A stretch of DNA of 64,000 nucleotides from Escherichia phage JM17. The notes below the pieces were generated by a model. The model was not told where the DNA came from, did not search any database, and saw only the letters and a list, made by a program, of their open reading frames with translations. Shown piece after piece: positions 27,875 through 61,343 of this stretch (within the stretch, counting starts at the first letter, position 1; each line of letters opens with the position of its first letter). A program made the position numbers and the translations under genes. The stretch lies in sequence record PP400779. The stretch is one strand, 5' to 3'.

Positions 27875-28692
27875 ATGTAGTATATAAACTATCATTTATT
27901 AGTAGAATTAATGCTAAAACCCCGCCATATTATTATATTGGAAGTAAAACCAATTGCACTTTTGACGGAACGAATATTATTGATAAAAATGGTAAATTTT
28001 ATTATTCGTCTTCGTCATCTTCCGAATTTCAAAAAGCTCTGTTGAAAGAAACACCGAAAGTTGAAATATTATATTTTCAATTAGTCGGAGATGAACAAAT
28101 AACTAGCATTGAAGCTGAATTTCAAAAGAATATAGAAAAAGATATATGGAATAAAGAGTATTTTAATTTAGCATATGCTAATGGTCAATTTACAACGTAT
28201 GGTGTTTCTCCTTCTAAAGAAACTAGAGAAAAGCAATCAATAACCATGATTAAAAGAAATCGTAATAAAGGTAAAAATCATGGATTTTATGGAAAGCATC
28301 ATACTAATTTAGCCAGAAAGAAAATATCAGAAGCTTCTAAAAAATACTGGAAAGAAAATCCACATCATGGATTTTCGCACACAAAGGAAGCTAAAATTAA
28401 AATTGGAATTTCATCTTCTATCAGGCATAAAGGAAGTGGAAATCCGATGTACGGCGTAAAACCTTGGAAAACTCCTAGAGCAATTAAATCTGGTACTTAT
28501 ATATTATGGTTAAAATACGCAGAAATTTTATATGATTATTTAGGTCCGGATTTTAAAAGTAAATCATCTATTTTTGCGGAGTTAAATTTACCGAAATTTA
28601 GAATTGATAATTTCATCAAAAGGTTTAAAATGGGTTGGAACCCATATTTAGACGAAGAATTTCAAAAGGATAAATTAGAATTATGTCTTTAG
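27871..28692 (+). mobile_element. free-standing GIY-YIG-type homing endonuclease gene
   Basis: VYKLSFI...YYYIGSKTN catalytic motif; NUMOD3-like repeats GKNHGFYGKHH and GSGNPMYGVKPW; AT-rich. Confidence 0.55.
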
Positions 28693-30500
28693 AGAAAGAT
28701 GTTTTAAATTTTATTTCAAATAAAGATAAAGAATTAAATACCGAAAATGCCAACAAAGATTCTCGTGTCTTTCCAACAAAAAGAGATTTAATGGCCGGTA
28801 TTGTTTCTAAACATATCGCTTGTAGTATTCTTCCGAGCCATATTGTAAATGCTCATAATGTCGGATTAATTCATTTTCACGATTTAGATTACAGTATATC
28901 ATTGCCTTTTACTAATTGCTGTTTAGTAGATTTAAAAGGAATGCTTGAGAACGGATTTAAGCTTGGTAATGCACAGATTGAAACTCCTAAATCAATTGGC
29001 GTTGCTACTGCAATTATGGCACAAATTACTGCACAGGTTGCTTCTCACCAATATGGCGGAACGACTTTTGCTAATGTAGATAAAGTACTTTCTCCTTATG
29101 TTAAACGCACCTATGCAAAACATATTGAGGATGCAGAAAAATGGCAAATCGCCGATGCGTTGAATTATGCTCAATCCAAAACAGAAAAAGATGTCTATGA
29201 CGCATTTCAAGCTTATGAGTATGAAGTAAATACTCTTTTTAGCTCAAACGGTCAAACTCCTTTTGTTACTATAACATTTGGAACAGGAACTGACTGGACT
29301 GAACGAATGATTCAGAAAGCAATTCTGAAAAATCGTATTAAAGGCCTTGGTCGTGATGGAATAACTCCTATTTTCCCTAAGCTTGTTATGTTCGTTGAAG
29401 AAGGCGTTAATCTTTATAAAGACGATCCGAATTACGACATTAAGCAACTTGCTTTAGAGTGCGCAAGCAAAAGGATGTATCCTGATATTATTTCAGCTAA
29501 GAATAATAAAGCTATCACTGGTTCATCTGTTCCTGTTTCTCCAATGGGTTGTCGTAGTTTCTTGAGTGCATGGAAAGATTCGACTGGTAATGAAATTCTT
29601 GATGGACGTAATAATCTTGGTGTTGTAACACTGAATCTTCCTCGTATTGCGTTAGATTCTTATATTGGAACACAGTTCAATGAACAGAAATTTGTTGAGC
29701 TATTTAACGAACGAATGGACCTGTGTTTTGAAGCTTTGATGTGTAGAATTAGTTCCTTAAAAGGAGTTAAAGCGACTGTTGCTCCTATTCTTTACCAAGA
29801 AGGTGCATTTGGGGTTCGTCTTAAACCTGATGACGACATAATTGAGTTATTTAAAAACGGTAGAAGTTCAGTGTCCCTAGGATACATTGGTATTCACGAA
29901 TTGAATATTCTTGTCGGTCGTGATATTGGGCAAGAAATTTTAACTAAAATGAATGCTCATCTTAAACAGTGGACTGAAAGAACCGGATTTGCTTTTAGTT
30001 TATATTCTACTCCTGCTGAAAACCTTTGTTATCGCTTCTGTAAACTTGATACAGAAAAATATGGAAGTGTAAAGGATGTCACTGATAAAGGCTGGTACAC
30101 TAACAGTTTCCATGTTTCAGTAGAAGAAAATATTACTCCGTTTGAAAAGATTTCTCGTGAAGCGCCATATCATTTCATTGCGACAGGTGGTCACATTTCT
30201 TATGTTGAACTTCCTGATATGAAAAATAACTTAAAAGGTCTTGAGGCCGTATGGGATTATGCTGCACAACATTTAGATTATTTTGGCGTTAATATGCCAG
30301 TAGATAAATGTTTTACATGCGGAAGTACCCATGAAATGACTCCTACTGAAAACGGATTTGTTTGTTCAGTTTGTGGAGAAAGTGATCCTAAAAAGATGAA
30401 CACCATAAGAAGAACATGCGGTTATTTGGGAAATCCGAACGAACGAGGATTTAATCTCGGTAAAAATAAAGAAATCATGCATAGGGTTAAACACCAATGA
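28683..30500 (+). CDS. nrdD: anaerobic ribonucleoside-triphosphate reductase (class III, NrdD)
   Basis: 605 aa; C-terminal glycyl radical motif RRTCGYLG; Cys-rich zinc site; uninterrupted (no intron). Confidence 0.95.
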   Translation: MSLEKDVLNFISNKDKELNTENANKDSRVFPTKRDLMAGIVSKHIACSILPSHIVNAHNVGLIHFHDLDYSISLPFTNCCLVDLKGMLENGFKLGNAQIETPKSIGVATAIMAQITAQVASHQYGGTTFANVDKVLSPYVKRTYAKHIEDAEKWQIADALNYAQSKTEKDVYDAFQAYEYEVNTLFSSNGQTPFVTITFGTGTDWTERMIQKAILKNRIKGLGRDGITPIFPKLVMFVEEGVNLYKDDPNYDIKQLALECASKRMYPDIISAKNNKAITGSSVPVSPMGCRSFLSAWKDSTGNEILDGRNNLGVVTLNLPRIALDSYIGTQFNEQKFVELFNERMDLCFEALMCRISSLKGVKATVAPILYQEGAFGVRLKPDDDIIELFKNGRSSVSLGYIGIHELNILVGRDIGQEILTKMNAHLKQWTERTGFAFSLYSTPAENLCYRFCKLDTEKYGSVKDVTDKGWYTNSFHVSVEENITPFEKISREAPYHFIATGGHISYVELPDMKNNLKGLEAVWDYAAQHLDYFGVNMPVDKCFTCGSTHEMTPTENGFVCSVCGESDPKKMNTIRRTCGYLGNPNERGFNLGKNKEIMHRVKHQ

Positions 30501-30967
30501 ATTATGATAGATTTTATCCTTGCGATTTTGTGAATGGCCCTGGTTGCAGGGTCGTTCTTTTCGTTACAGGTTGTTTGCATAAATGTGAAGGGTGTTATAA
30601 TAAATCAACATGGAATGCTAGAAATGGTATTCCATTCACTGGTGAAACACTAGAACAATTAATTGAATGCTTGAATAATGATTATATAGAAGGATTGACT
30701 ATAACCGGAGGAGACCCTCTCTATCCTGACAACCGAGATGTTATTCATTGCATTGCTCAAACAGTAAAAAATCTTTATCCCAATAAAAGCATTTGGTTGT
30801 GGACAGGATATAAGTTTGAAGATATTAAACAACTAGAAATGCTTAAATATGTTGATGTTATTATTGATGGGAAGTATGAGAAAAATCTTCCGACTAAAAA
30901 GCTGTGGCGAGGATCAGATAATCAGCGACTTTGGTCAAATACCGATGGGGTGTGGAAACATGATTAA
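30497..30967 (+). CDS. nrdG: anaerobic RNR activating enzyme (radical SAM, NrdG)
   Basis: radical-SAM cysteine cluster in GCLHKCEGCYN; ATGA-coupled to nrdD. Confidence 0.9.
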   Translation: MNYDRFYPCDFVNGPGCRVVLFVTGCLHKCEGCYNKSTWNARNGIPFTGETLEQLIECLNNDYIEGLTITGGDPLYPDNRDVIHCIAQTVKNLYPNKSIWLWTGYKFEDIKQLEMLKYVDVIIDGKYEKNLPTKKLWRGSDNQRLWSNTDGVWKHD

Positions 30968-42955: not shown

Positions 42956-45667
42956 ATGAAAGAATTTTACTTAACGGTTGAACAGATTGGTGATTCAATT
43001 TTTGAACGTTACATCGATTCTAATGGCCGTGAACGTACTCGTGAAGTAGAATATAAACCATCACTGTTTGCTCATTGTCCAGAAAGTCAGGCTACGAAAT
43101 ATTTCGATATCTACGGTAAGCCGTGTACTCGTAAGTTGTTCGCTAATATGCGTGATGCCTCCCAATGGATTAAACGCATGGAAGATATCGGACTTGAAGC
43201 ACTTGGCATGGACGATTTCAAATTGGCGTATTTGTCTGACACTTATAACTATGAAATCAAATACGACCATACAAAAATTCGTGTGGCTAACTTCGACATC
43301 GAAGTAACATCTCCGGATGGGTTCCCTGAGCCATCACAAGCAAAACATCCGATTGATGCTATCACCCATTATGACTCAATTGACGACAGGTTCTACGTAT
43401 TTGATCTATTGAATTCTCCATATGGTAATGTAGAAGAATGGTCTATTGAAATCGCTGCTAAGCTTCAAGAACAAGGCGGTGATGAAGTTCCATCTGAAAT
43501 TATCGATAAAATCATTTATATGCCGTTCGATAACGAAAAAGAATTGTTGATGGAATATCTCAACTTCTGGCAACAGAAAACTCCTGTCATTTTGACTGGA
43601 TGGAACGTTGAGTCATTCGATATTCCATATGTGTATAACCGAATCAAGAATATTTTTGGCGAATCTACTGCGAAACGTTTATCACCACATCGTAAAACTC
43701 GTGTTAAAGTTATCGAAAACATGTATGGTTCTCGTGAAATCATTACATTGTTCGGTATCTCTGTTCTTGATTACATTGACCTTTACAAAAAATTCTCTTT
43801 TACCAATCAACCGTCGTATTCTCTGGATTACATTTCAGAATTTGAATTGAACGTTGGTAAACTGAAATATGATGGCCCTATTTCTAAGCTTCGTGAAAGC
43901 AATCACCAACGATATATTTCTTATAACATTATCGACGTGTATCGTGTATTGCAAATTGATGCTAAGCGTCAGTTCATCAACTTGAGCTTGGACATGGGTT
44001 ATTATGCTAAGATACAGATTCAATCTGTGTTTAGCCCAATTAAAACATGGGATGCTATTATTTTTAATAGCCTTAAAGAGCAGAACAAGGTGATTCCACA
44101 AGGTCGTTCTCACCCGGTTCAACCTTATCCCGGCGCTTTTGTTAAGGAACCTATTCCAAATCGATACAAATATGTAATGAGTTTCGACCTTACATCTCTG
44201 TATCCAAGTATTATTCGCCAAGTGAATATTAGCCCGGAAACAATAGCAGGAACGTTTAAAGTAGCTCCATTGCATGATTATATTAACGCAATCGCTGAAC
44301 GTCCTTCAGATGTGTACAGTTGCTCTCCTAACGGCATGATGTATTATAAAGACCGTGATGGTGTAGTTCCAACTGAAATCACTAAGGTCTTTAATCAACG
44401 TAAAGAACATAAAGGTTACATGCTTGCAGCTCAACGTAATGGTGAAATAATTAAAGAGGCATTGCATAATCCTAATCTTTCTGTTGACGAACCATTAGAT
44501 GTTGATTATCGTTTCGACTTCAGTGATGAGATTAAAGAAAAGATTAAAAAGTTGTCTGCTAAATCTCTTAATGAAATGTTGTTTAGAGCTCAACGTACTG
44601 AAGTTGCAGGTATGACCGCACAAATTAACCGTAAATTGCTCATCAACTCACTTTATGGTGCACTTGGAAACGTTTGGTTCCGTTATTATGATTTGCGTAA
44701 TGCTACTGCAATCACAACATTCGGGCAAATGGCTTTACAGTGGATTGAACGTAAAGTTAATGAATATCTGAATGAAGTTTGTGGTACAGAAGGTGAAGCT
44801 TTCGTTCTTTATGGTGATACGGACTCTATTTACGTATCTGCTGATAAAATTATCGATAAGGTTGGTGAATCTAAATTCCGTGATACTAACCATTGGGTAG
44901 ACTTCTTAGATAAGTTTGCACGTGAACGTATGGAACCTGCTATTGATAGAGGTTTCCGTGAAATGTGCGAATACATGAACAATAAACAACACTTAATGTT
45001 CATGGACCGAGAAGCTATCGCTGGGCCTCCGCTTGGTTCTAAAGGTATTGGCGGATTTTGGACTGGTAAGAAACGTTATGCATTAAACGTGTGGGATATG
45101 GAAGGTACTCGTTACGCTGAGCCTAAACTCAAAATCATGGGTCTAGAAACTCAGAAATCTTCGACCCCTAAAGCAGTACAGAAAGCTCTTAAAGAATGTA
45201 TTCGTCGTATGCTTCAAGAAGGTGAAGAATCATTACAAGAATATTTTAAAGAGTTTGAAAAAGAATTCCGTCAATTGAATTATATTAGCATCGCGTCGGT
45301 ATCTTCTGCGAATAACATTGCTAAATATGACGTCGGTGGATTCCCTGGTCCTAAATGCCCGTTCCATATTCGTGGAATTCTGACATATAACCGAGCTATC
45401 AAAGGTAATATCGATGCACCACAAGTTGTAGAAGGTGAAAAAGTATATGTTCTGCCTTTACGTGAAGGAAACCCATTCGGTGATAAATGTATCGCATGGC
45501 CTTCTGGTACTGAAATCACAGATTTAATTAAAGACGATGTACTTCATTGGATGGACTACACTGTTCTCCTTGAGAAGACATTTATTAAACCACTTGAAGG
45601 ATTCACATCAGCAGCGAAACTCGATTATGAGAAGAAAGCATCTCTGTTCGATATGTTCGATTTTTGA
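42956..45667 (+). CDS. 43: DNA polymerase (family B, gp43)
   Basis: 903 aa; exonuclease motifs FDIEV and YNIIDV; polymerase motifs DLTSLYPSII, KLLINSLYGALG, YGDTDS; from memory resembles the RB69-type polymerase. Confidence 0.97.
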   Translation: MKEFYLTVEQIGDSIFERYIDSNGRERTREVEYKPSLFAHCPESQATKYFDIYGKPCTRKLFANMRDASQWIKRMEDIGLEALGMDDFKLAYLSDTYNYEIKYDHTKIRVANFDIEVTSPDGFPEPSQAKHPIDAITHYDSIDDRFYVFDLLNSPYGNVEEWSIEIAAKLQEQGGDEVPSEIIDKIIYMPFDNEKELLMEYLNFWQQKTPVILTGWNVESFDIPYVYNRIKNIFGESTAKRLSPHRKTRVKVIENMYGSREIITLFGISVLDYIDLYKKFSFTNQPSYSLDYISEFELNVGKLKYDGPISKLRESNHQRYISYNIIDVYRVLQIDAKRQFINLSLDMGYYAKIQIQSVFSPIKTWDAIIFNSLKEQNKVIPQGRSHPVQPYPGAFVKEPIPNRYKYVMSFDLTSLYPSIIRQVNISPETIAGTFKVAPLHDYINAIAERPSDVYSCSPNGMMYYKDRDGVVPTEITKVFNQRKEHKGYMLAAQRNGEIIKEALHNPNLSVDEPLDVDYRFDFSDEIKEKIKKLSAKSLNEMLFRAQRTEVAGMTAQINRKLLINSLYGALGNVWFRYYDLRNATAITTFGQMALQWIERKVNEYLNEVCGTEGEAFVLYGDTDSIYVSADKIIDKVGESKFRDTNHWVDFLDKFARERMEPAIDRGFREMCEYMNNKQHLMFMDREAIAGPPLGSKGIGGFWTGKKRYALNVWDMEGTRYAEPKLKIMGLETQKSSTPKAVQKALKECIRRMLQEGEESLQEYFKEFEKEFRQLNYISIASVSSANNIAKYDVGGFPGPKCPFHIRGILTYNRAIKGNIDAPQVVEGEKVYVLPLREGNPFGDKCIAWPSGTEITDLIKDDVLHWMDYTVLLEKTFIKPLEGFTSAAKLDYEKKASLFDMFDF

Positions 45668-45707: not shown

Positions 45708-46343
45708 ATGAAAACTACTCCTATTACTATCGCTATTGACGCAATCATAAAACAAGCTTCTTCTTTGGCCGCTATGGCCAAAGTAATTAGTCAAAACCCT
45801 GCTCGTTATAATGCTATTCTAGAAACTCTTCGACGCCCTGGACTTAGTAATTATGAAAGCCGGGTAATTATTACAGGTGTTGGTAAGAATGCTAATATCG
45901 CAACTAAAGCTTCCGAGACATTTGCTTCACTAGGTATTCCTAGCATGTATTTGAACACTGGGCATTATTCTCACGGTGATGCAGGATTCATTGCGCCTAA
46001 TGATGTGTTGATTCATATTAGTCGTTCTGGTAAGACTGAAGAAATGATAGGTGTTGCTAAACATCTTCGTATGATTCGTCCTCAGGTTAAACAGATTCTG
46101 TTACATTGTAACCCAGACATTCCACAAGAATACGAAGCTCTTTTTGATTATACGTTCTGTACTGGCATCGCGGTAGAGGTTGATGAGAATTCTCTGGCTC
46201 CGACTATGTCCACTACATTGTTGTTAGCGCTTATCGATACGTTTGCTATCAACCTTTCGTCTGAACGTGGATTTACCTCTAATGATTTCCTTAAGTTCCA
46301 TCCAGGCGGTGCACTAGGTGCCATGTTACGAGGCGAACAATGA
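45708..46343 (+). CDS. SIS-domain sugar-phosphate isomerase (KdsD/KpsF/GmhA-like)
   Basis: 211 aa; SIS motifs ITGVGKNANIATK and ISRSGKTEE. Confidence 0.55.
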   Translation: MKTTPITIAIDAIIKQASSLAAMAKVISQNPARYNAILETLRRPGLSNYESRVIITGVGKNANIATKASETFASLGIPSMYLNTGHYSHGDAGFIAPNDVLIHISRSGKTEEMIGVAKHLRMIRPQVKQILLHCNPDIPQEYEALFDYTFCTGIAVEVDENSLAPTMSTTLLLALIDTFAINLSSERGFTSNDFLKFHPGGALGAMLRGEQ

Positions 46344-46483
46344 AAGCAATAACAATAGGACTTTTACTATTGATGCTTGTCATGACTATCTACTGGAGCT
46401 TAACGGCTCCGGTAATGATTCCAACACTTGTAATTGGATGGATTATGATTGGACTACAAGCAAAGTATGAATGCTTTAACTAG
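46340..46483 (+). CDS. small hydrophobic membrane peptide (47 aa)
   Basis: ATGA overlap with the SIS gene stop; not in track. Confidence 0.3.
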   Translation: MKAITIGLLLLMLVMTIYWSLTAPVMIPTLVIGWIMIGLQAKYECFN

Positions 46484-46524
46484 AATAGTGTACAATACTC
46501 CTACTTACCAATGAGGACTTTAAC

Positions 46525-48210
46525 ATGAAAAAAGCTGTTATTCTTGGTGCTGGACTGGCAACTCGTTTGTATCCAATAACGCATCATATTCCTAAGGTGC
46601 TTGTTAACTATAAACAAGATACTATTCTGAGCAATTTGTATACAATTTATTCTGACCTTGGCGCAGATGAAATTATTGTAGTAGTTCATTCAAAATTTGC
46701 TGAAACTGTTCGAGCTTATTGTGAACAAGAAGGGTTCAATGTGACTATTCGTACAGTTGATGAAGCGTATGGTTCTGCTTATGCTCTTGCTAAATTACAC
46801 AAAGATTTAGACGGCCATAATGTAATTGTTAACTGGTGTGATATTATTCCTGATTTTGGTTCATGGTCTTGGAATGTTAACGCAATCTATGTTAAGGGTG
46901 ACGAATGTCGATATAATTTCGACGGTGAAAATATCACTAACGTAGGTTCAACAGGTGGTAATGTTGTAGGAATTTATCAGTTCAAAGACTGGGAATTCTA
47001 TATGGGTTCTACTGATGAGGAAATTCATGAATACTGCAAAGGACGTGATTTCGTAGAATTCCTTTACGGCAGCGCATTCAATAAATCAGAGCTTATGAAT
47101 CTAATTGATTTAGGTGATATGCCTAAACTTGAAAAAGCTCATGAAGTTCGTGAACTTAATCGTAGTTTTAATGCAGTTGAAATTGGTGAAGAAACTGTAA
47201 CTAAATTCGCATTAACCGAACAGGGTCGAGCTCTTCAGAAAGATGAGATTTCGTGGTATCTTAAAGTGAAATCAGATTCAGTTCCTCAGTTAGTTTCTGT
47301 TAATGAAAATAACTTTGAAATGGAACGCATTAAAGGTAAGCCTGCATTTGAATATATTAAATCCAAATCAAGTCTTGCTCGTCCACAAATTGTTGATGCA
47401 ATTTTAGATGCACTGAAATTCAGCACAGACACTTATTTTGTAAGTCCTGAAACTGTTCGTCGTGATTTCACTAAAGAATTCTATACGAAAGTTATTGATC
47501 GTTGTGAAAGCATTCAACCATTGATTGATTCATTTGGTAAAATCACACATGTGAACTACACTAAGATTGGACGTCTGAAGCCAATGCTGAAACAAGCTTT
47601 AGAACACCTCATTCGTTATCATAACCGTTCTCAGGGACAGTACTCTGTTATTCACGGTGACCCGAACTTCAGTAATACTATGATTACTGATAATGGCGAA
47701 GTCAAGTTTATCGACCCTCGTGGATATTTTGGTGAAACCAAGATTTACGGGCCAAAATTGTACGATGAAGCTAAAGTGCTTTACGCTGTTTCAGGTTATG
47801 ATGAATTCAATGCTAATCCGACTTGGGGACAGTTTACTATTGATGAAACAACTTGTAATGTGACTATTAACATCAATCCATTAGTTTACAAATATGGAAA
47901 GATGAGTTCGTTTAACGAGTATCATCATTTGGCAGTGGCAATTATCTGGATTGCATTAGGTGGTTATTTCAAGAATAATCCACTTAAAGCGGTAGCCGCA
48001 TATTATAAAGGTATGGAACTTCTGACTAAGCAATTACGTAACATGGGCCGTGTACTTCAGGACGGCTCTATTAGTTATGACGTAGCAGAACCTGTAACGG
48101 CTACTCTGATTACAAAAAATCCTGGTAAATGGGTACTAACTGATAAAGAAACTGGTGTTTCCTATCGTCCAATCGGTGGCGATATCACTCATCAATGGGA
48201 ACGAATTTGA
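46525..48210 (+). CDS. bifunctional sugar-1-phosphate nucleotidyltransferase / sugar kinase (N-terminal NDP-sugar pyrophosphorylase, C-terminal APH/choline-kinase-like kinase)
   Basis: 561 aa; N-terminal GAGLATRLYP..PK signature; C-terminal Brenner motif HGDPNFSNTMITDNGEVKFIDPRGYFG. Confidence 0.6.
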   Translation: MKKAVILGAGLATRLYPITHHIPKVLVNYKQDTILSNLYTIYSDLGADEIIVVVHSKFAETVRAYCEQEGFNVTIRTVDEAYGSAYALAKLHKDLDGHNVIVNWCDIIPDFGSWSWNVNAIYVKGDECRYNFDGENITNVGSTGGNVVGIYQFKDWEFYMGSTDEEIHEYCKGRDFVEFLYGSAFNKSELMNLIDLGDMPKLEKAHEVRELNRSFNAVEIGEETVTKFALTEQGRALQKDEISWYLKVKSDSVPQLVSVNENNFEMERIKGKPAFEYIKSKSSLARPQIVDAILDALKFSTDTYFVSPETVRRDFTKEFYTKVIDRCESIQPLIDSFGKITHVNYTKIGRLKPMLKQALEHLIRYHNRSQGQYSVIHGDPNFSNTMITDNGEVKFIDPRGYFGETKIYGPKLYDEAKVLYAVSGYDEFNANPTWGQFTIDETTCNVTININPLVYKYGKMSSFNEYHHLAVAIIWIALGGYFKNNPLKAVAAYYKGMELLTKQLRNMGRVLQDGSISYDVAEPVTATLITKNPGKWVLTDKETGVSYRPIGGDITHQWERI

Positions 48211-48956
48211 TACATTATCTCTACAAAACTACTAATCTTATAAACGGTAAAGTTTATTTAGGAATGCACTCGGCTGAAGAAGCCGAGCCTTTAGATTTAT
48301 ATAAAGGTTCTGGTAAATTATATAAAAAGGCTGAAAGGAAATATGGGAAGGAAAATTTTCTTAAAGAAATCATTTCCTACCATAGCTCAAGAGAAGAATT
48401 AAAAATAGCTGAAAAGGCTCTAATAACATTAGACATAGTTAAAGACCCAAATTATTACAATCTTAAAACTGGTGGCGAAGGTGGTTCTGACGGGTTATCC
48501 CAAAGGTCCAAGGATAAAATTTCTAAGGCAAATAAAGGACGTTTAGTTGGTGATAAAAACCCAAGATGGGGTAAAACTTTGTCAGCTGAATCTATAGCTA
48601 GGGGTAAAGAAAAGCACAGGAGGTATGGTAAACCTGCATTACATGGTCTAAAGATTAATGTAGATGGCAAATATTATGAATCCTGTCGGGAAGCGGCTAA
48701 AGATTTAGGTATATCTTCTGCCACGATTCAAAAGAGAGTAAAATCGCCTAAATATCTTAATTATCGGTATCAGGACGAAAGCAAAAATGCTCACAAGTCT
48801 CAAAAATTTGTTAAAATAAACGAAAATTACTATGAATCTCTTAGGATAGCTGAAAAGAAAACGGGTATTCCTAGAAAGCGTATAGCTGATAATATTAAAA
48901 ATTCTATTGAAGGATATTGCTATGAAACCATTACATCTTTGCGTGGACGTCGATGA
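48195..48956 (+). mobile_element. GIY-YIG homing endonuclease gene (Seg-like)
   Basis: IHYLYKTTNLINGKVYLGMHS; NUMOD3-like repeats; overlaps both neighbours (16 nt upstream, 35 nt downstream). Confidence 0.55.
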
Positions 48957-49296
48957 TTGTATAACAGAGTGGAATAACAATCGTGATTACGTGAACTTCA
49001 AACCAGACGTCGAAATGGTGTCTGCCATTAATGCCCTGTATGATGCAGGGCATACAATAACGCTTTACACTGCTCGAGGTATGAAGTCAGTAGGTCCTGG
49101 TCGTATAGCAATTGACATTCTCCCAAGTCTGATTCAGAACTTGGCAAACATTGGCTTGAAGTACCATAATTTGCTAACACATAAACCAGTATATGATTGG
49201 ATTATCGACGACAAAGCTATGCGTCCTGACGAATTCAAAGCTCTTATGAATAAAGGCGAATTCGAAACATTTAAATCATATAAACCGAATCTATAA
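48922..49296 (+). CDS. HAD-superfamily phosphatase (KdsC-like small sugar-phosphate phosphatase)
   Basis: motif I LHLCVDVDDCIT, motif II TLYTARG, Lys in THKP, motif IV WIIDD. Confidence 0.55.
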   Translation: MKPLHLCVDVDDCITEWNNNRDYVNFKPDVEMVSAINALYDAGHTITLYTARGMKSVGPGRIAIDILPSLIQNLANIGLKYHNLLTHKPVYDWIIDDKAMRPDEFKALMNKGEFETFKSYKPNL

Positions 49297-49353
49297 TAAT
49301 TTAAGTAAGACCTGCAAAAACCATCGCATCAATTAACGTGAGATGCAAAAAAA

Positions 49354-50514
49354 ATGAATACTTTTAAAATTGGAACGAATTTTGATTTAGCTCTTCTTGA
49401 TAAAATCGTAGAGCTCAATAAAACTTATCCTAATAGCTTGATAAACGAAGTATACGGCTCTACAAGAGAAATGGCTTTTGTAGCAGCCAGACCTGATTTT
49501 AGGCTTCCTGACGTTGACAAAAAGATGTTAGAAGATTACGTTAAACGTTGTAACGAATTAGGTATTTGCTTTAACTATACACTCAACACGATAAATCCTG
49601 GTTCAAAAAGAGAACTAGTTGAGTGGAAGAAGAAAGCTATTCAGGATTATGTTCAGTATCTTTGGTCAATAGGCGTATGGCGTATTACTATCGCTAACCC
49701 TGTTGTTATGGAAATTGTTCGTGAAGTCAATAAAGACATTGAGATTGAAGTTTCAACAATTCTACATGTCGATGCTGTAACTCAAATCAAATACTTGCAT
49801 GACCAGTATAATATCAAAAAGGTCTGCTGTGGAATTCATAAGAACCGTTCAGTTTCTTTCCTGAAGCGTGCAGCAGAGTTTTGCAATAAGAACAATATAA
49901 TATTTGAAGTTCTTGTAAATGAGTTCTGTTCTAATGCCGGTAAAGGGTATACAACACATTGTAGCTATCGTGACTCTTGCTATATTTTCCATAGTACTGA
50001 TGTTACAGCTGATGATGCTAAATCCTTAAACGGATATCCTATGCAGCACTGTATTAAAGCTCGTGATACAGACCCATTTAACTGGTTGAGAACTCGTTTT
50101 GTTCGTCCTCAAGATTTGAAACTTTATAATGATATTGGTATCACTCAATTCAAAGTTTCAGGACGTACAGGTAGCACAGACTACATTTTGAAAGTTCTTG
50201 AAGCATACGCTTCTGAAAAGTTTGAAGGTAATTTGTTAGAACTGTGGAAGCCTTTAGAGACTATTTTCACTCTTGAAAATGAGACCGAGTTTTCACATAC
50301 GGTAAATATTGAAACCTCTTTGTTAGATGGCTTTTTAGAAAAAAGGTGGTTCAGACATCCAGATTTCGATTGTGCTAATGAGATCTGCGGGACGACGTGT
50401 ACATATTGTGAAAGATATTATAAACGTCAGTTATCTAAAAATGGGTTAGCAGAAAACTCTATATCTATTATTGATATAACTAACTCTGATGACGCTTTGA
50501 GGTACCCGGAATGA
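49354..50514 (+). CDS. Cys-rich enzyme of unknown function (possible metal/Fe-S protein, U32-like features tentative)
   Basis: 386 aa; Cys clusters VCCGIH, FCSNAGKGYTTHCSYRDSCY, CANEICGTTCTYCERY. Confidence 0.45.
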   Translation: MNTFKIGTNFDLALLDKIVELNKTYPNSLINEVYGSTREMAFVAARPDFRLPDVDKKMLEDYVKRCNELGICFNYTLNTINPGSKRELVEWKKKAIQDYVQYLWSIGVWRITIANPVVMEIVREVNKDIEIEVSTILHVDAVTQIKYLHDQYNIKKVCCGIHKNRSVSFLKRAAEFCNKNNIIFEVLVNEFCSNAGKGYTTHCSYRDSCYIFHSTDVTADDAKSLNGYPMQHCIKARDTDPFNWLRTRFVRPQDLKLYNDIGITQFKVSGRTGSTDYILKVLEAYASEKFEGNLLELWKPLETIFTLENETEFSHTVNIETSLLDGFLEKRWFRHPDFDCANEICGTTCTYCERYYKRQLSKNGLAENSISIIDITNSDDALRYPE

Positions 50515-50750
50515 TTTCTAGAAAAACTTTTAATCACCAACTTAATGAAGAGATTTTGACTACGAAACTGAACACTAACGAACAAATTCTTAAAAAGGCC
50601 CTTATGGGCCTGTTTGAAACCAAAGCGGCTAAAGTGATTAAAGGACCTGTTCAATTAGAATATTACGCTGATACATTTCTTCATAGTGTTCTTGGAAGTA
50701 TCGATGCTGAAGCTTTACGTTATATCAACATTGCCAAGAAATTCAAATAA
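50511..50750 (+). CDS. hypothetical protein (doubtful)
   Basis: ATGA overlap; an internal hairpin GGCCC-TTAT-GGGCC (50590-50607) could instead be a terminator. Confidence 0.3.
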   Translation: MISRKTFNHQLNEEILTTKLNTNEQILKKALMGLFETKAAKVIKGPVQLEYYADTFLHSVLGSIDAEALRYINIAKKFK

Positions 50751-50792
50751 GCTTTACGAATTGAGTATATAATAAATTGTATTGAGGTAAAC

Positions 50793-51509
50793 ATGGGAAA
50801 ACATAACACAATGAAATATATCAAAGCCGCAGATTTTCAAACCGCATTTAAAGCAGTCAATCGTGAAATTTTAGAAAACCCGGAATTCGTAACTGATTCT
50901 CGTATTGGACGTTGTAATGAAATTGGGTCTATGACAGTAGTTGTTGACACTCCATCATCATTCAAAATGACTGACCCACGTATTAACCGCATCTCTTATG
51001 AATATGCCGAAGACTTCTGGAAGTTTATGATTTCTGGTGGTACCAACGCAGAAGAAGCGTTTAAGGCATATCCTAATGTCGCTAAATTTATTTCTAAACC
51101 AAAATCAGATGTTTTGCCGGCGAACTTCAATACTTTCTATGGTCCTCGCATTGCGGCCCAATTACCAGCTCTTCTAAAAGAACTTAAAGAGAAGCCTAAC
51201 TCTCGAAGAGTTGTGTTCCAAATTCTAGAAAGTTCTGATCAGGCTTTGCTTGATTCGGATGAAACGCTTGAATATCCATGTACTGACTCAGTGACTTATT
51301 ATATTCGTGATGGTAAGCTTTATACCCACTGTCATATGCGTTCTCAGAACTGTGCTGTTGTTATGCAGTTGGATTTTTATCTCCAAGGAAAATTACTTCA
51401 TTATATCGCTAACGAATGCGGTGTAGAAGTTGGTGATTATACTCATACCATGGTAAGTGCCCATGTGTTTGAACGTGATTTTGATTATGTTAAAGGATTC
51501 CTTGACTAA
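50793..51509 (+). CDS. 42: dCMP hydroxymethylase (thymidylate synthase family, gp42-like, divergent)
   Basis: 238 aa; nucleophile Cys in EYPCTDSVTYYIRD; MRSQNCAVVMQLDFY with Asp at the pyrimidine-specificity position (Asn in thymidylate synthases). Confidence 0.65.
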   Translation: MGKHNTMKYIKAADFQTAFKAVNREILENPEFVTDSRIGRCNEIGSMTVVVDTPSSFKMTDPRINRISYEYAEDFWKFMISGGTNAEEAFKAYPNVAKFISKPKSDVLPANFNTFYGPRIAAQLPALLKELKEKPNSRRVVFQILESSDQALLDSDETLEYPCTDSVTYYIRDGKLYTHCHMRSQNCAVVMQLDFYLQGKLLHYIANECGVEVGDYTHTMVSAHVFERDFDYVKGFLD

Positions 51510-52408
51510 TGGCTATTTTCCGCGTACCAATCTTGAGTATGCGGTCTTATGAAACTGGACAGTATGCTATCCTTAAGGATGGCAACTTCCAACTTCATTT
51601 GCACCGTGCTAATCCGGGTGATGTGATTACATATCCACGTAATGCATCTGATATTAAAGAATGCGAACGTCTTTTCCCAGAATTTAAGTTTGTTCCATTA
51701 TGGTATAAAGATAACGCTTATAACACTCGTAAATATTTCTGGTCTGAAAATGAATTTGTGGTTGATTCATTAATTGCTTATTATGATTGCGATTTTCTAA
51801 TCACAGATATAACTGGATATGACGGCGCTTTTGATGTAGAATTCAATTTCAATATCACTGCAGACCCTAATAAACCACGTTTTTATATTGACGAATTCTT
51901 AAAAACCGACATGTTGTCGGTTAATCGTTCAATCCAAACAACTGTGTTGAATGAACGTCAAAAAGAAGTGCTGGTTAACGCAGGTGCAGATGGTAATAAG
52001 ATTATCGTAACGCAGAAAGTTATACGTCCTTCCATCATGCAGCGTCTTGTAGGTGATTTGGCTCCTATTTATCTAGATGGTATTTTTCATCCATTTCGAA
52101 TTAGTGACCCGTGCTATCGTTTTGAACAAGTGGTTGAATGTGCAATTCAATTAGGTCAACCGCTTTATATAACCGATCCAAATAATAGCTTTGACAGAAA
52201 TAAGTATCCTGAAGAAGCGTTGATTCGAATTTTTAAACCAACTAAAACTGAGTACTATCAAATTCTTAAAGGACGTCCGAAGATTCAATATTTCGAAAAT
52301 CCTGAAGAAGTATTTCATCCAGGTCTTGGTGAGTTCATCTACTTTAATGCTTTAATTTCTTCACCGTATAATATACCTAAATATGAAGATGTCGTAATCG
52401 AGGAATAA
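51509..52408 (+). CDS. protein of unknown function in the beta-gt slot (candidate DNA glycosyltransferase, unproven)
   Basis: 299 aa; no resemblance to T4 beta-gt recognised. Confidence 0.4.
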   Translation: MAIFRVPILSMRSYETGQYAILKDGNFQLHLHRANPGDVITYPRNASDIKECERLFPEFKFVPLWYKDNAYNTRKYFWSENEFVVDSLIAYYDCDFLITDITGYDGAFDVEFNFNITADPNKPRFYIDEFLKTDMLSVNRSIQTTVLNERQKEVLVNAGADGNKIIVTQKVIRPSIMQRLVGDLAPIYLDGIFHPFRISDPCYRFEQVVECAIQLGQPLYITDPNNSFDRNKYPEEALIRIFKPTKTEYYQILKGRPKIQYFENPEEVFHPGLGEFIYFNALISSPYNIPKYEDVVIEE

Positions 52409-52409
52409 A

Positions 52410-52958
52410 ATGGCTAAAATTATTTTAGTAGATGGCCCGGATAATGCTGGTAAAACAACTTTCATTAATGACATAATGGAAATTAGTGAAAGATATGTAA
52501 AAATTGATTTCCCTAAACGAACAGTTGATGGACGTTTCGATGTTAAGTCTCGAAATGAAGTTGGCTGTTTTGAAACGATGTTGAATTATTTAGACCCTAC
52601 TAAGATTTATCTGTTAGACCGTGGATATATTAGTAACTGGGTTTACGGACGTATTCGACAAGATGCGGACTCGGTTCTTGACGTTTATGAACAGGATTAT
52701 ATTCGTCTTTGCCAAAACCATGATGTGTTCACAATTATTTTAACACGTAACGAAATGACTGAAAGTTTTGAAGATGACCTTATTACTTTGTCTTCATTAG
52801 GTTTTAATACAGTCATTTCACATTTTGAAGAGTTTGCAATTCATAACAAAATCCAAACGTATCAATTACTTAATCATGATGGTGCTAACAAAGTTATAGG
52901 ATTTAATGCAAGCGAACGTAATGATTTGATTACAGAAATCATCAAATGGGCTCGTTAA
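52410..52958 (+). CDS. P-loop nucleotide kinase (thymidylate-kinase-like)
   Basis: IILVDGPDNAGKTT plus DRGY motif in LLDRGYISNW. Confidence 0.5.
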   Translation: MAKIILVDGPDNAGKTTFINDIMEISERYVKIDFPKRTVDGRFDVKSRNEVGCFETMLNYLDPTKIYLLDRGYISNWVYGRIRQDADSVLDVYEQDYIRLCQNHDVFTIILTRNEMTESFEDDLITLSSLGFNTVISHFEEFAIHNKIQTYQLLNHDGANKVIGFNASERNDLITEIIKWAR

Positions 52959-53056: not shown

Positions 53057-54229
53057 ATGTCTGATTTAAAATCTCGTCTGATTAAAGCTTCTACTTCTAA
53101 AATGACTGCAGACTTGACTAAGTCTAAGCTGTTTAATAATCGTGATGAAGTCCCTACTCGTATTCCGATGTTGAATATTGCACTAGGTGGTGCTCTGAAT
53201 GCAGGATTGCAATCAGGCTTGACTATTTTTGCTGCACCTTCTAAACATTTTAAAACATTGTTTGGACTAACTATGGTCGCAGCGTATATGAAGAAATATA
53301 AAGATGCAATCTGTTTGTTTTATGACTCAGAATTCGGTGCTTCAGAATCTTACTTCCGTTCGATGGGTGTTGATTTAGACCGTGTAGTTCATACTCCGAT
53401 TCAATCTGTCGAACAACTTAAAGTCGATATGACTAATCAGCTTGACGCTATTGAACGCGGTGATAAAGTTATTATCTTTATCGATTCAATCGGTAATACT
53501 GCATCTAAGAAAGAAACCGAAGATGCATTGAACGAGAAAGTTGTAGGTGATATGTCTCGTGCTAAGGCACTTAAATCTCTTTTCCGTATTGTGACTCCTT
53601 ATCTGACTATTAAAGATATTCCATGTGTTGCAATCAACCATACCGCAATGGAAATTGGCGGATTGTACCCTAAAGAGATTATGGGCGGCGGTACAGGTAT
53701 TCTTTATTCTGCTAACACTGTATTCTTTATCTCTAAACGTCAGGTTAAAGAAGGTACAGAATTGACCGGTTATGACTTCACGTTGAAAGCAGAAAAATCT
53801 CGCACAGTTAAAGAGAAATCTACTTTCCCGATCACGGTTAATTTTGATGGCGGTATTGACCCATTCAGTGGCTTGTTAGAAATGGCAACTGAAATTGGTT
53901 TTGTAGTTAAGCCTAAAGCCGGTTGGTATGCTCGCGAATTCCTTGACGAAGAAACAGGTGAAATGATTCGTGAAGAAAAATCATGGCGTGCTAAAGCTAC
54001 TGATTGTGTAGAATTCTGGGGGCCGTTGTTTAAACATAAGCCTTTCCGAGATGCAATTGAAACTAAATATAAACTAGGTGCTATCTCTTCTATTAAAGAA
54101 GTTGATGACGCTGTTAACGACCTTATTAATTGCAAAGCAACAACTAAAGTTCCGGTTAAAACTTCTGATGCTCCGTCTGCAGCAGATATAGAAAACGACC
54201 TTGACGAAATGGAAGATTTCGATGAATAA
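53057..54229 (+). CDS. uvsX: recombinase UvsX (RecA-like)
   Basis: 390 aa; Walker A-like segment and acidic C-terminus; matches T4 UvsX as recalled. Confidence 0.9.
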   Translation: MSDLKSRLIKASTSKMTADLTKSKLFNNRDEVPTRIPMLNIALGGALNAGLQSGLTIFAAPSKHFKTLFGLTMVAAYMKKYKDAICLFYDSEFGASESYFRSMGVDLDRVVHTPIQSVEQLKVDMTNQLDAIERGDKVIIFIDSIGNTASKKETEDALNEKVVGDMSRAKALKSLFRIVTPYLTIKDIPCVAINHTAMEIGGLYPKEIMGGGTGILYSANTVFFISKRQVKEGTELTGYDFTLKAEKSRTVKEKSTFPITVNFDGGIDPFSGLLEMATEIGFVVKPKAGWYAREFLDEETGEMIREEKSWRAKATDCVEFWGPLFKHKPFRDAIETKYKLGAISSIKEVDDAVNDLINCKATTKVPVKTSDAPSAADIENDLDEMEDFDE

Positions 54230-57537: not shown

Positions 57538-57786
57538 ATGGAATTATTCGTAGCTAGTTCAGTAGCAGTTTTAATCGCAGGTATTGGTTCAATCATCATT
57601 TACATGTTGCCTTGGGTAATAGCACTTATTCGTGGCACAAAAAGCACAACAGCAATCTTCTTTGTATCTTTACTCTTTAACTGGACGATGATTGGTTGGA
57701 TTGGAACTTTAATTTGGTCTATCGTTGCCGAAAAGAAATCTGCTCAGCAGCCTCAACAAGTAATTATTATTCGCGAAAAAGAATAA
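57538..57786 (+). CDS. small two-TM membrane protein (superinfection-immunity-like)
   Basis: 82 aa; two TM helices with WTMIGWIGTLIWSI. Confidence 0.4.
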   Translation: MELFVASSVAVLIAGIGSIIIYMLPWVIALIRGTKSTTAIFFVSLLFNWTMIGWIGTLIWSIVAEKKSAQQPQQVIIIREKE

Positions 57787-60732: not shown

Positions 60733-60821
60733 AATATCTCCTTAGTTACCTTATTATTTATTACGCTTTATAAAATTAATGTTAGAATTAACTCTCTTAT
60801 ACTGAATTGAAAGGAAAAATA

Positions 60822-61343
60822 ATGGCACACTTTAACGAATGTTCACAACTTATTTCTGGTGTTGATAAAGCAGAAGAAGCTTATTTTAATGCTCTGATTC
60901 ACGAAGATAAAGACCCACTGCAGGTAATGCTTGATATGCAGAAATCTTTACAGGTTCGTCTGGCAAATGACAAGCCTGAACATAACAAACATCCTGATGA
61001 ATTGGCTACTGCTGGTGATGTTGTTGATTGGCTGCGTAATCAGAAAGATTATATTGATGATGAATTTCGTGAACTGCTGACTTCACTTGGCGGTATGAGC
61101 AATGGTGAAAAAGCTGCCAGCAGTGTATGGAAGCCGTGGAAGGCACAACACGCTGAATATCGAAATCGTCGTATCGATGAACTGTCTCCTGAAGACCAGC
61201 TTGAAATTAAATTTGAAATGATTGATATTCTGCATTTCGTTCTAAATATGTTCCAAGGTCTAGGACTTTCTGCTGAAGAAATCTTCAAACTGTATTATCT
61301 GAAAAACCAACACAACTTTGAACGTCAGGATAATGGTTACTGA
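60822..61343 (+). CDS. 56: dCTPase/dUTPase gp56 (MazG-like)
   Basis: MAHFNEC... matches T4 gp56 as recalled. Confidence 0.8.
   Translation: MAHFNECSQLISGVDKAEEAYFNALIHEDKDPLQVMLDMQKSLQVRLANDKPEHNKHPDELATAGDVVDWLRNQKDYIDDEFRELLTSLGGMSNGEKAASSVWKPWKAQHAEYRNRRIDELSPEDQLEIKFEMIDILHFVLNMFQGLGLSAEEIFKLYYLKNQHNFERQDNGY

Follow-up and report, generated by a model that had tools for sequence, protein, structure and literature searches.

Probable arabinosyl-5-hydroxycytosine DNA modification genes of Escherichia phage JM17 and a U32-family protein that may act as an anaerobic cytosine hydroxylase

Introduction

Which DNA modification is encoded between the DNA polymerase gene 43 and uvsX of Escherichia phage JM17, and what could a Cys-rich protein contribute to it? 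In T4 the order is 43 - imm.1 - imm - 42 - beta-gt - segA - uvsX, whereas the 64,000-nucleotide stretch of JM17 DNA analyzed here (PP400779, called the window) carries a set of sugar-nucleotide genes at this position. A preliminary description had proposed a pathway in which a pentose is activated and transferred to 5-hydroxymethylcytosine (5-hmC), and had regarded the enzymology of these genes as not established. The latter view is outdated: an arabinose cluster was first proposed in 2018 (Thomas et al., PMC6024577), and the chemistry and enzymology of the arabinosyl-5-hydroxycytosine (ara-5hoC) system are published for RB69, DLP3 and NP (PMC13326640; PMC13390438). The ara-5hoC gene cluster of RB69-like phages is already known, and the remaining lead at this locus is the Cys-rich protein, a member of the U32 family.

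Results

Layout of the locus

All ORFs from the SIS gene to the P-loop gene lie on the + strand and are flanked by gene 43 (42956-45667) and uvsX (53057-54229), which confirms the co-oriented set. The seven ORFs listed before were all recovered at the same positions, together with three that had been omitted (the 47-aa ORF, the endonuclease and the 79-aa ORF). The features are as follows:

45708..46343, + strand: predicted arabinose-5-phosphate isomerase, single SIS domain without CBS (RB69 gp55 equivalent)
46340..46483, + strand: 47-aa ORF that overlaps the stop of the SIS gene; annotated as hypothetical in both NRG-P0074 and FL18
46525..48210, + strand: bifunctional 561-aa AfhE-like enzyme, N-terminal nucleotidyltransferase and C-terminal kinase (RB69 ORF53_52c)
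48195..48956, + strand: free-standing GIY-YIG/NUMOD seg-type homing endonuclease, 253 aa (TIGR01453, 4e-17)
48922..49296, + strand: AfhF-like HAD-family phosphatase (RB69 gp51), near-identical to PDB 9IQW (6.8e-81)
49354..50514, + strand: Cys-rich U32-family protein by family and fold, 386 aa (RB69 gp50)
50511..50750, + strand: 79-aa ORF, RB69 ORF049c-like, ATGA overlap with the U32 stop
50793..51509, + strand: 5-hydroxy-dCMP synthase, thymidylate-synthase fold, flavin/O2-dependent hydroxylase (RB69 gp48 equivalent)
51509..52408, + strand: compact GT-B glycosyltransferase, 299 aa, predicted first DNA arabinosyltransferase (RB69 gp46:47 equivalent)
52410..52958, + strand: thymidylate-kinase-like P-loop nucleotide kinase, GPDNAGKT9-16 (RB69 gp45 equivalent)
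60819..61343, + strand: gp56-type dCTP pyrophosphatase (dUTPase_2, 1.1e-6), outside the reported interval

The cluster is 98.4% identical at the nucleotide level to Mosigvirus NRG-P0074. It is not a chance arrangement, as 150 phage records each span 80% or more of the block. The earlier family calls for the SIS (4.8e-10), nucleotidyltransferase-kinase (NTP_transferase, 8.5e-10), HAD (2e-13) and P-loop proteins hold, as do the comparison with T4 and the synteny with its 42 and beta-gt slots. Family and fold assignments also hold across the remaining members, and solved structures are matched by the hydroxylase (9IQC/9IQU, ~98% identity) and the phosphatase (9IQW, 7e-81). We are confident that the interval is the ara-5hoC DNA hypermodification cluster of an RB69-like Mosigvirus. 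Genus, gene order and all core members are shared with the RB69/HY126 system (Lee et al. NAR 2026, PMC13326640; Mahler et al. Cell Host Microbe 2025; Thomas et al. 2018; and, through the account given in Lee et al., He et al. Nat Chem Biol 2026, the source of the "Afh" proteins), with proteins 98-100% identical. The fused enzyme and the glycosyltransferase are each one intact ORF in JM17, whereas sequencing errors break both up in the RB69 reference record. The 47-aa ORF gave no Pfam match; a small ORF occupies the equivalent slot in Yersinia phage TG1.

A further difference from RB69/HY126 is a GIY-YIG insertion at the 5' end of the HAD gene, which is absent from most relatives and present in 3 of the 30 best-matching records. 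The endonuclease exceeds the TIGR01453 cutoff (63 versus 56 bits) and contains I-TevI_DNA-bd, NUMOD1 and NUMOD3 domains. Positions 48207-48930 (~724 bp) stand where FL18, which is 99.5% identical, has ~25 bp. The five initial codons of the HAD gene (MGTNL) were co-opted by the endonuclease ORF, and the insertion has remodelled the HAD N-terminus; an alternative TTG start of the HAD gene is possible at 48907. The endonuclease is a selfish mobile insertion outside the pathway.

Base branch

The product of 50793..51509 belongs to the thymidylate-synthase family (Thymidylat_synt, 2e-15) and is ~98% identical to the solved hydroxylases 9IQC/9IR2 (7.9e-161) and 9IQU (1.7e-157). The catalytic PCT162-164 is kept, RSQN183-186 corresponds to D169N of E. 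coli ThyA, and QLD192-194 to N177D. As shown for RB69 gp48 and the ~98%-identical HY126 enzyme, it would hydroxylate dCMP at C5 with flavin and O2. Its substrate would come from the dCTPase, which by homology to T4 gp56 is expected to convert dCTP to dCMP. This gene has its syntenic counterpart in the NTP pyrophosphohydrolase annotated in NRG-P0074, its product shares 88% identity with the IME341 homolog and 65% with the dCTPase annotated in Thanatos, and RB69p028 is given as dCTPase by Lee et al. (PMC13326640). The dCTPase belongs to the modification system and would exclude unmodified dCTP from phage DNA. Next, 5hodCTP would be made by host kinases together with the dNMP kinase of the phage, whose gene lies elsewhere in the genome, and the polymerase would incorporate it, as demonstrated for RB69 gp159.

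Arabinose activation and transfer

The SIS protein matches KpsF/GutQ (5.2e-32) and KdsD (2e-30) in NCBIfam and carries the motifs GVGKN57-61 and SRSGKTEE105-112; structural matches to 2xhz/3etn were reported for its RB69 counterpart (Lee et al. Table 1, PMC13326640). It is predicted to interconvert ribulose-5-P and arabinose-5-P. The fused enzyme, shown to be one 561-residue protein by Thomas et al. (2018, PMC6024577), has its NTP_transferase domain at residues 3-99, with further support from NCBIfam sugar-1-P nucleotidylyltransferases (7e-14) and PDB 1jyk (2e-5), and an APH/choline-kinase-like C-terminus with weak kinase matches at residues 308-409. Its motifs are GAGLATR8-14, HGDPNFSN377-384 and IDPRG396-400. 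The phosphatase matches the EcbF/BcbF-type capsule-biosynthesis family TIGR01689 and PDB 1xpj (2e-10), with DVDD at residues 9-12. On the model of HY126, as He et al. are summarized by Lee et al. (PMC13326640), the kinase domain (AfhE) would convert arabinose-5-P to Ara-1,5-bisphosphate, the HAD phosphatase (AfhF) would release Ara-1-P, and the nucleotidyltransferase domain (AfhE) would form UDP-arabinofuranose.

The 299-aa GT-B enzyme is predicted to place the first arabinose onto the 5-OH, and a second glycosyltransferase, encoded elsewhere, would add the second arabinose. The structure 9IQZ, from the same series as 9IQC/9IQW, is labelled "phage HY126 glycosyltransferase". Lee et al. (PMC13326640) saw no activity of single glycosyltransferases on 5hoC DNA, and the Thanatos homolog of the 299-aa protein has been reported as a UDP-xylose pyrophosphorylase and not a transferase. 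The P-loop kinase gave only a weak dTMP-kinase match (6e-3), and structural matches to thymidylate kinases were described for its RB69 equivalent (Lee et al., PMC13326640). All clusters examined, those of Maestro, IME341 and Thanatos among them, contain this kinase, which is a conserved core member.

The parallels to the glucosyl-5-hmC system of T4 (gp42, alpha-gt/beta-gt, gp56, gp1) comprise the dCTPase, a kinase, and two genes at equivalent positions: a dCMP-modifying ThyA-fold enzyme and, in the beta-gt slot, a sugar transferase. However, T4 uses folate-dependent hydroxymethylation instead of O2/flavin hydroxylation and takes UDP-glucose from the host, whereas JM17 would make its own UDP-arabinofuranose, and the JM17 transferase has no sequence relationship to beta-gt.

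Core and accessory genes

The AfhE-like enzyme, HAD phosphatase, TMK-like kinase, ThyA homolog and glycosyltransferase form a core found in Maestro, IME341, TG1, Thanatos and Entb_45. In the Acinetobacter phages DLP3/Maestro and in Dhakavirus these five proteins are 38-79% identical to those of JM17, but the U32 protein, its 79-aa partner and chorismate mutase are missing; Acinetobacter phages have extra glycosyltransferases for a third arabinose, and NrdD/G and the SIS isomerase are absent from Dhakavirus as well. Among the clusters compared, U32 occurs only in Entb_45, TG1, Thanatos and the Mosigviruses. The 221 U32 matches are all at least 80% identical (152 records at least 99%), and the host genera named in them are all Enterobacterales or Shewanella. 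The hydroxylase occurs also in 57 Acinetobacter and 22 Rhizobium phage records, and these diverged phages appear to be devoid of U32, because the U32 matches do not extend below 80% identity. The host-range pattern of U32 relative to the hydroxylase counts in favor of the anaerobic role proposed below, but it is confounded by phylogeny.

The U32 protein and its neighbors

The U32 protein is 99.5% identical to its RB69 counterpart and 17-20% identical to the U32 proteins of E. coli, with RlhA as best match (81% probability). It has the conserved Cys pair of the U32 motif and an RlhA-like Cys pattern, although the correspondence of the C-terminal Cys cluster spans large gaps and appears in the MAFFT alignment only. 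Homologs down to 48% identity share 63 invariant columns, including 10 Cys.

Chorismate mutase is the enzyme that makes prephenate. In 56 records of related phages its gene is the small ORF next to that of U32 or of the hydroxylase. In the three loci inspected (Entb_45, TG1, Thanatos) CM_2 reaches 35-41 bits against a 27-bit cutoff and the gene overlaps, and is translationally coupled to, the U32 gene; Thanatos keeps the pair despite a rearranged gene order. On an 80-kb phage contig the U32 homolog is followed by DAHP synthase (2.6e-70). Profile searches and hhalign found no chorismate mutase in the JM17 window. The coupled 79-aa ORF, found in 162 phage records, gave no Pfam or NCBIfam match even at E<=10, and we rejected it as a chorismate mutase (hhalign against the phage enzymes, probability 0.15%); in TG1 its homolog stands in tandem with a real one. 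U32 and the 79-aa ORF coupled to it form an accessory module.

Discussion

The preliminary description was correct in recognizing a self-contained pentose-activation and DNA-glycosylation module of the RB69 type, its families and synteny, while the acceptor base, the hydroxymethylase, the order of steps and the role of the Cys-rich protein have to be revised. That a gp42-like hydroxymethylase provides 5-hmC for arabinosylation, with the phosphatase releasing free pentose before the kinase and nucleotidyltransferase act, is in our opinion very improbable. The synteny with T4 42 and beta-gt, the ThyA fold, the N177D dCMP-preference residue common to gp42 and the original report of ara-hmC (Thomas 2018, PMC6024577) speak for 5-hmC, and an earlier reading, "dephosphorylates Araf5p to Ara", still stands in Table 1 of Lee et al. 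(PMC13326640). However, published chemistry has already refuted 5-hmC: in RB69, NMR and MS place arabinose in direct ether linkage at C5 of 5-hydroxycytosine, and gp48, whose activity yields 5hodC, binds FMN and takes its oxygen from 18O2 (PMC13326640). For Mosigvirus NP the same acceptor was confirmed and the ara-hmC assignment termed erroneous (PMC13390438). The JM17 protein shares only 25% identity with gp42, and its RSQN, compared with RSND in gp42, replaces the D at the ThyA-169 position by N. In HY126, as far as He et al. are relayed by Lee et al., the kinase forms the 1,5-bisphosphate from Ara5P before AfhF acts, which contradicts the free-pentose order.

The Cys-rich protein had been placed in the sugar route without a defined step, and the label "sugar or heterocycle reductase" (Lee et al. 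Table 1, PMC13326640), the gene position between phosphatase and hydroxylase, an "epimerase" named together with the sugar genes (PMC13390438) and a U32 homolog near an NAD-epimerase and a kinase-like gene on contig L004 would fit an enzyme that tailors the pentose or nucleotide sugar, or a generic reductase. We consider this unlikely, as the route from Ru5P to UDP-Araf, in the account of He et al. given by Lee et al., is complete without a redox step, no sugar-acting U32 member is known, and the coupled chorismate mutase would be left unexplained. The equivalent cluster of Acinetobacter phages and of the E. coli Dhakavirus does without U32, which is therefore no core enzyme of the sugar pathway, and the U32-less clusters of Maestro and DLP3 are reported to yield arabinosyl-5hoC (PMC13326640). 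An RNA hydroxylase similar to TrhP or RlhA, tuning translation via phage or host tRNA or rRNA as a mere neighbor of the modification genes, seems about equally doubtful. The pyrimidine-hydroxylating U32 enzymes characterized so far act on RNA polymers and not on mononucleotides or DNA, RlhA is the best E. coli match, and T4-like phages encode tRNAs, for example at the Maestro locus. On the other hand, the gene lies inside the 5hoC cluster, near or adjoining the dCMP hydroxylase (window, NRG-P0074, FL18, Entb_45, TG1, Thanatos), distant homologs adjoin dCMP deaminase, thymidylate kinase and UDG instead of translation genes, and the long middle region of RlhA is missing (386 versus 653 aa). Most records annotate a U32 "peptidase" or "collagenase-like protease", and the authors of RlhA did not fully exclude a peptidase role; nevertheless, the strong sequence conservation, the translational coupling to the downstream gene and the conserved pairing with chorismate mutase make a protease or a decaying passenger without a role in DNA modification highly implausible.

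Judged from sequence and by analogy, the U32 protein may be a back-up cytosine-C5 hydroxylase that is Fe-S- and prephenate-dependent and independent of O2. The characterized members RlhA (23S rRNA ho5C2501), TrhP (tRNA ho5U34) and UbiU/UbiV (anaerobic ubiquinone synthesis), which share domain and fold with the phage protein, are hydroxylases of this type, and for none of them has in vitro reconstitution been reported. RlhA makes 5-hydroxycytidine, so that a C5-hydroxylated cytosine would be common to both, and chorismate mutase or DAHP synthase in phage relatives parallels the prephenate link. In contrast to RNA or a quinone precursor, the phage substrate would presumably be a deoxynucleotide or DNA. 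The low identity to the E. coli U32 proteins, the RNA substrates of the known pyrimidine-hydroxylating members and the absence of a chorismate mutase from the JM17 window weigh against this reading. In its favor, the window also encodes the anaerobic reductase NrdD/NrdG, and neither is found anywhere in the genome of the U32-less E. coli Dhakavirus IME341. TG1 speaks against it: this phage has U32 and chorismate mutase, but no NrdD/G in the 28 kb upstream of gene 44 or in the 18.7-kb cluster locus that adjoins this region. Paired aerobic and anaerobic enzymes are known from UbiI/H/F (flavin, O2) and UbiU/V, TrhO and TrhP, and NrdAB and NrdDG of T4-like phages. JM17 resembles these sets in that a flavin/O2 hydroxylase and a U32 protein stand side by side and NrdD/G is present, an analogy in which the common product is presumed. 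Such a U32 hydroxylase would supply 5hoC during anaerobic phage replication.

Genomic Context of the Modification Cluster

All ORFs named in the preliminary description of this region were recovered at their coordinates on the + strand between the DNA polymerase gene (42956-45667) and uvsX (53057-54229), and three ORFs missing from its list (47, 253 and 79 aa) are added here. The features of the cluster and three further genes of the window are as follows.

45708-46343, + strand: SIS protein, arabinose-5-phosphate isomerase type (KpsF/GutQ family TIGR00393 5e-32, KdsD 2e-30)
46340-46483: 47-aa ORF
46525-48210, + strand: fused AfhE-type nucleotidyltransferase and kinase, 561 aa (N-terminal NTP_transferase 8.5e-10, sugar-1-phosphate type; PDB 1jyk 2e-5)
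48195-48956: GIY-YIG/NUMOD seg-type homing endonuclease, 253 aa (TIGR01453 63 bits, cutoff 56; NUMOD1/3; I-TevI_DNA-bd)
48922-49296, + strand: HAD phosphatase, AfhF type (PDB 9IQW 6.8e-81; TIGR01689 2e-13; DVDD motif)
49354-50514, + strand: U32 protein
50511-50750, + strand: 79-aa ORF
50793-51509, + strand: ThyA-fold hydroxylase
51509-52408, + strand: 299-aa GT-B protein
52410-52958, + strand: thymidylate kinase (TMK)-like P-loop protein
28683-30500: NrdD, anaerobic ribonucleotide reductase (5e-171, glycyl-radical domain)
30497-30967: NrdG, radical-SAM activase of NrdD
60819-61343: dCTPase, gp56-type

Three results identify the window as an RB69-like Mosigvirus: its polymerase matches that of Mosigvirus JS09 at 100% identity, the 7.4-kb interval shares 98.4% identity with Escherichia phage NRG-P0074, and at least 80% of this interval is covered in 150 phage records. 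The comparison with T4 synteny made earlier was right, the T4 order being 43 - imm.1 - imm - 42 - beta-gt - segA - uvsX. Based on synteny with NRG-P0074, imm of the window is located at about 57538-57786 downstream of gene 41, whereas it adjoins gene 43 in T4. This displacement indicates that the modification cluster took over the imm position and was not added beside it. The block has an even GC content (0.33-0.40) and the base composition gives no sign of a recent foreign origin; a promoter/terminator scan revealed no enrichment over shuffles. At 8318-9274 the window also encodes a 318-aa protein composed of two recently defined domains, DUF7277 (1e-27) and DUF7275 (6e-78).

In comparison with phage FL18 (99.5% identical) the window carries a precise 724-bp insertion (48207-48930) in place of about 25 bp at the 5' end of the HAD gene. 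The first five HAD codons now belong to the endonuclease ORF, and the phosphatase, read from a new start, has a different short N-terminus and keeps its DVDD motif. The insertion is present in 3 of the best 30 records and absent from most near-identical Mosigviruses among these. Both the domain architecture and this presence/absence polymorphism at a conserved site assign the element to the GIY-YIG seg-type class. A second putative homing endonuclease (27871-28692, 273 aa, NUMOD3 motif) directly precedes nrdD, with whose start it overlaps.

Identity and Synthesis of the Modified Base

Earlier publications already cover the cluster, its product and most of its enzymes and include crystal structures of nearly identical proteins; the preliminary description had located the system correctly, and the system is not new. 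A module of eight genes between polymerase and uvsX was described by Thomas et al. (2018; PMC6024577), who showed that the fused enzyme is one chain of 561 residues and proposed that its gene and that of the SIS protein serve the making of UDP-arabinose. RB69 DNA contains mono- and di-arabinosyl-5-hydroxycytosine, in which a direct ether bond joins the sugar to C5. The RB69 ThyA homolog gp48, which binds an FMN-type flavin, converts dCMP to the dCMP form of 5-hydroxycytosine (5hodCMP), and the oxygen introduced derives from 18O2 (Lee et al., NAR 2026; PMC13326640). The earlier assignment as arabinosyl-hydroxymethylcytosine has been called erroneous, and the same modification has been found in Mosigvirus NP (PMC13390438).

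The model of the preliminary description, in which arabinose is transferred to 5-hydroxymethylcytosine made by a divergent gene 42-like hydroxymethylase, needs three corrections, which concern the base, the enzyme class of this protein and the order of the steps. We see the main value of our analysis in this correction, as the base is 5-hydroxycytosine (5hoC) and its maker a hydroxylase, not a hydroxymethylase. The ThyA homolog matches PDB 9IQC/9IR2/9IQU (up to 7.9e-161, ~98% identity), one entry of the 9IQ* series bearing the label "phage HY126", and shares 25% identity with T4 gp42. Alignments with the solved structures and gp42 revealed that the catalytic cysteine is kept (PCT162-164), that QLD192-194 has Asp at the N177 position (N177D), as in gp42, and that RSQN183-186 is found where ThyA has RSaD and T4 gp42 has RSND, which corresponds to D169N in E. 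coli ThyA numbering. This exchange has been proposed by Lee et al. as a diagnostic signature of the hydroxylases (PMC13326640). Therefore, the combination of PCT, Asp at N177, RSQN and the low identity to gp42 identifies the protein as a hydroxylase and 5hoC as the base, in line with the published RB69 chemistry (PMC13326640; PMC13390438). Judged by its sequence, the window protein is not a T4-type gp42 dCMP hydroxymethylase, which has Asp at the ThyA-169 equivalent. By analogy to the published relatives, the virion DNA of the JM17 isolate is predicted to carry mono- or di-arabinosyl-5hoC in place of cytosine.

Family searches agree with the preliminary calls for the SIS, nucleotidyltransferase-kinase and HAD proteins. 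The C-terminal part of the 561-aa protein contains the kinase motifs HGDPNFSN (HGDxxxxN) and IDPRG (IDP) at residues 377-400, and the protein is 43-71% identical to its homologs in five other clusters. It had been suggested that the phosphatase acts before the kinase and that the enzymology is not established. According to the part of the HY126 work of He et al. that is related by Lee et al. (PMC13326640), AfhE converts arabinose-5-phosphate to the 1,5-bisphosphate, AfhF then strips the 5-phosphate and AfhE last makes UDP-arabinofuranose. The kinase step thus precedes the phosphatase and, as far as these accounts go, the enzymology is largely established. The P-loop protein has a weak resemblance to dTMP kinase, and its gene is kept in every cluster version examined. 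Phosphorylation of 5hodCMP is already provided by another kinase, the gp1-type dNMP kinase, and the TMK-like enzyme perhaps acts on a glycosylated nucleotide.

For the 299-aa GT-B protein, a role in transferring the first arabinose is predicted. Comparison with beta-gt, whose slot it occupies, led us to reject an identity as beta-gt homolog, and the window contains no homolog of the T4-type alpha- or beta-glucosyltransferases. Single glycosyltransferases gave no activity on 5hoC DNA (Lee et al.; PMC13326640). The Thanatos homolog TH1_063 (locus L013:6383-7285), which is 48% identical to the 299-aa protein, was reported to act in vitro as a pyrophosphorylase producing UDP-xylose from UTP and xylose-1-phosphate, with no DNA transfer detected. 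The literature on this family is therefore in conflict between a predicted arabinosyltransferase and a UDP-xylose pyrophosphorylase. Searches of the PDB with the glycosyltransferase-family and U32-family sequence profiles returned spurious matches only, which made a fold comparison necessary.

A U32 Protein Related to Oxygen-Independent Hydroxylases

The U32 protein and its possible connection to prephenate are the sole part of the system that could be new. The protein has a Peptidase_U32 domain and the corresponding fold, and ten of its cysteines do not vary in 34 homologs, whose identity goes down to 48%. In hhalign the phage family aligned with RlhA over 206 columns (E 1.2e-5, 81% probability), whereas UbiU and TrhP scored worse (5-8e-3). 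C203-X5-C209 pairs with C169-X6-C176 of RlhA in hhalign, and MAFFT selects C192/C209 instead; C192, C203 and C209 are all invariant in the 34 homologs. An equivalent of the essential cysteine pair of the U32 motif (C169/C176 in RlhA and UbiU) is present in the phage protein. Furthermore, the C-terminus contains the invariant motif C340-X4-C345-X3-C349-X2-C352, where MAFFT sets C580 and C611 of RlhA on C340 and C349 across large gaps and hhalign stops short of the region.

Those U32 proteins that have been characterised are hydroxylases that work independently of O2, and none has been reconstituted in vitro so far. Formation of 5-hydroxycytidine at position 2501 of the 23S rRNA requires RlhA, which depends on prephenate, Fe-S cluster biogenesis and the four cysteines C169, C176, C580 and C611, whereas UbiU/V stand in for the flavin/O2 enzymes UbiI/H/F under anoxia with prephenate as the oxygen donor. 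To our knowledge, the sole established route to 5hoC needs molecular oxygen, and RB69-like phages infect gut bacteria. It is possible, although we lean somewhat against it, that the U32 protein is an Fe-S, O2-independent and prephenate-dependent cytosine-C5 hydroxylase, which provides an anaerobic second route to 5hoC. In gut phages this enzyme would hydroxylate C5 without O2 via an Fe-S cluster, in parallel to the O2/flavin-dependent ThyA-fold hydroxylase, with host-made prephenate in JM17 and a phage-encoded chorismate mutase (CM) in relatives. By analogy, such a pair would resemble UbiU/V beside UbiI/H/F.

Gene neighbourhoods in relatives outside Mosigvirus offer a genomic proxy for a dependence on prephenate. 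The gene overlapping the U32 stop codon in phage Entb_45 (locus L002:7158-7397) encodes a type II CM (CM_2 40.9 bits, cutoff 27), and this coupling is also found in Yersinia phage TG1 (L012:8706-8999) and in Thanatos-1 (L013:8983-9240), where the gene order is reshuffled, yet U32 and CM remain paired with overlapping stop and start codons. Using tblastn we identified CM in 56 phage records from more than 12 host genera, annotated beside the U32 or the hydroxylase gene. No CM was found in the window, so prephenate would need to be supplied by PheA/TyrA of the host. The 79-aa ORF has the same slot and the same length as the CM of Entb_45, but it matched no Pfam or NCBIfam model at E<=10, BLASTP revealed no similarity and hhalign gave a probability of 0.15%, and it belongs to an unrelated family; in TG1 a gene of the 79-aa family and a true CM stand in tandem. 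In the literature covered, to which He et al. 2026 and Mahler et al. 2025 do not belong, we found nothing on U32, prephenate, CM or Afh gene names in the context of phage 5hoC.

NrdD and NrdG equip the phage for anoxic DNA replication, though the known dCMP hydroxylase needs O2, and the class of phage ribonucleotide reductase follows the oxygen use of the host. U32 is absent in Acinetobacter phage Maestro and in the E. coli Dhakavirus IME341, which both keep the AfhE-like, HAD, TMK-like, hydroxylase and GT genes. The whole genome of IME341 (L011, L017-L021) retains the core arabinosyl-5hoC genes and contains no U32, 79-aa ORF, SIS isomerase, NrdD or NrdG; the KpsF/GutQ-type isomerase is thus not family-wide, and IME341 presumably takes arabinose-5-phosphate from host KdsD/GutQ. 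Maestro has no NrdD/G at the syntenic site (68 kb examined). A strict co-occurrence of U32 with NrdD/G would fit the window, IME341 and these 68 kb of Maestro, but is broken by TG1, which has both U32 and CM and in which neither the 28 kb upstream of gene 44 nor the adjoining cluster locus (18.7 kb) contains NrdD/G. In all, 377 phage records contain the hydroxylase, among them those of 57 Acinetobacter and 22 Rhizobium phages. For U32 there are 221 matches, all at least 80% identical, and the named host genera are all Enterobacterales members or Shewanella, a pattern that is confounded by phage phylogeny.

The phage protein shares domain, fold and cysteine pair with RlhA, TrhP and UbiU/V, whereas the known pyrimidine-directed members of the family act on RNA. 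It is this difference, together with the missing CM in the window, TG1 without NrdD/G in the regions examined and the confounding by phylogeny, that keeps our assessment of the anaerobic hydroxylase tentative.

More distant U32 homologs (54-56% identity) were detected in metagenomic contigs of huge phages (L003, 466 kb; L004, 80 kb; L005/L006, 60 kb) with DnaE-type polymerases, where they adjoin dCMP deaminase, thymidylate kinase and UDG. In L004 the gene after U32 encodes a type I-beta DAHP synthase (2.6e-70 vs 3e-17 for KDO8P synthase), with an NAD-epimerase also downstream and a kinase-like 484-aa protein upstream. These loci may represent an unrecognised pyrimidine hydroxylation system and, as a related U32 clade stands beside such nucleotide genes, the chemistry may be widespread.

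If the U32 protein is indeed an anaerobic cytosine hydroxylase, the RlhA/TrhP/UbiUV family would gain its first member directed at DNA, and prephenate would for the first time be seen to serve a virus as oxygen donor, which would also account for the CM genes in many phages. The poorly understood U32 family would be extended from RNA and quinones to DNA precursors, and phage plaques in combination with nucleoside LC-MS would offer a tractable system for its chemistry. For the phages themselves, such an enzyme would explain how complete cytosine replacement is kept up without O2.
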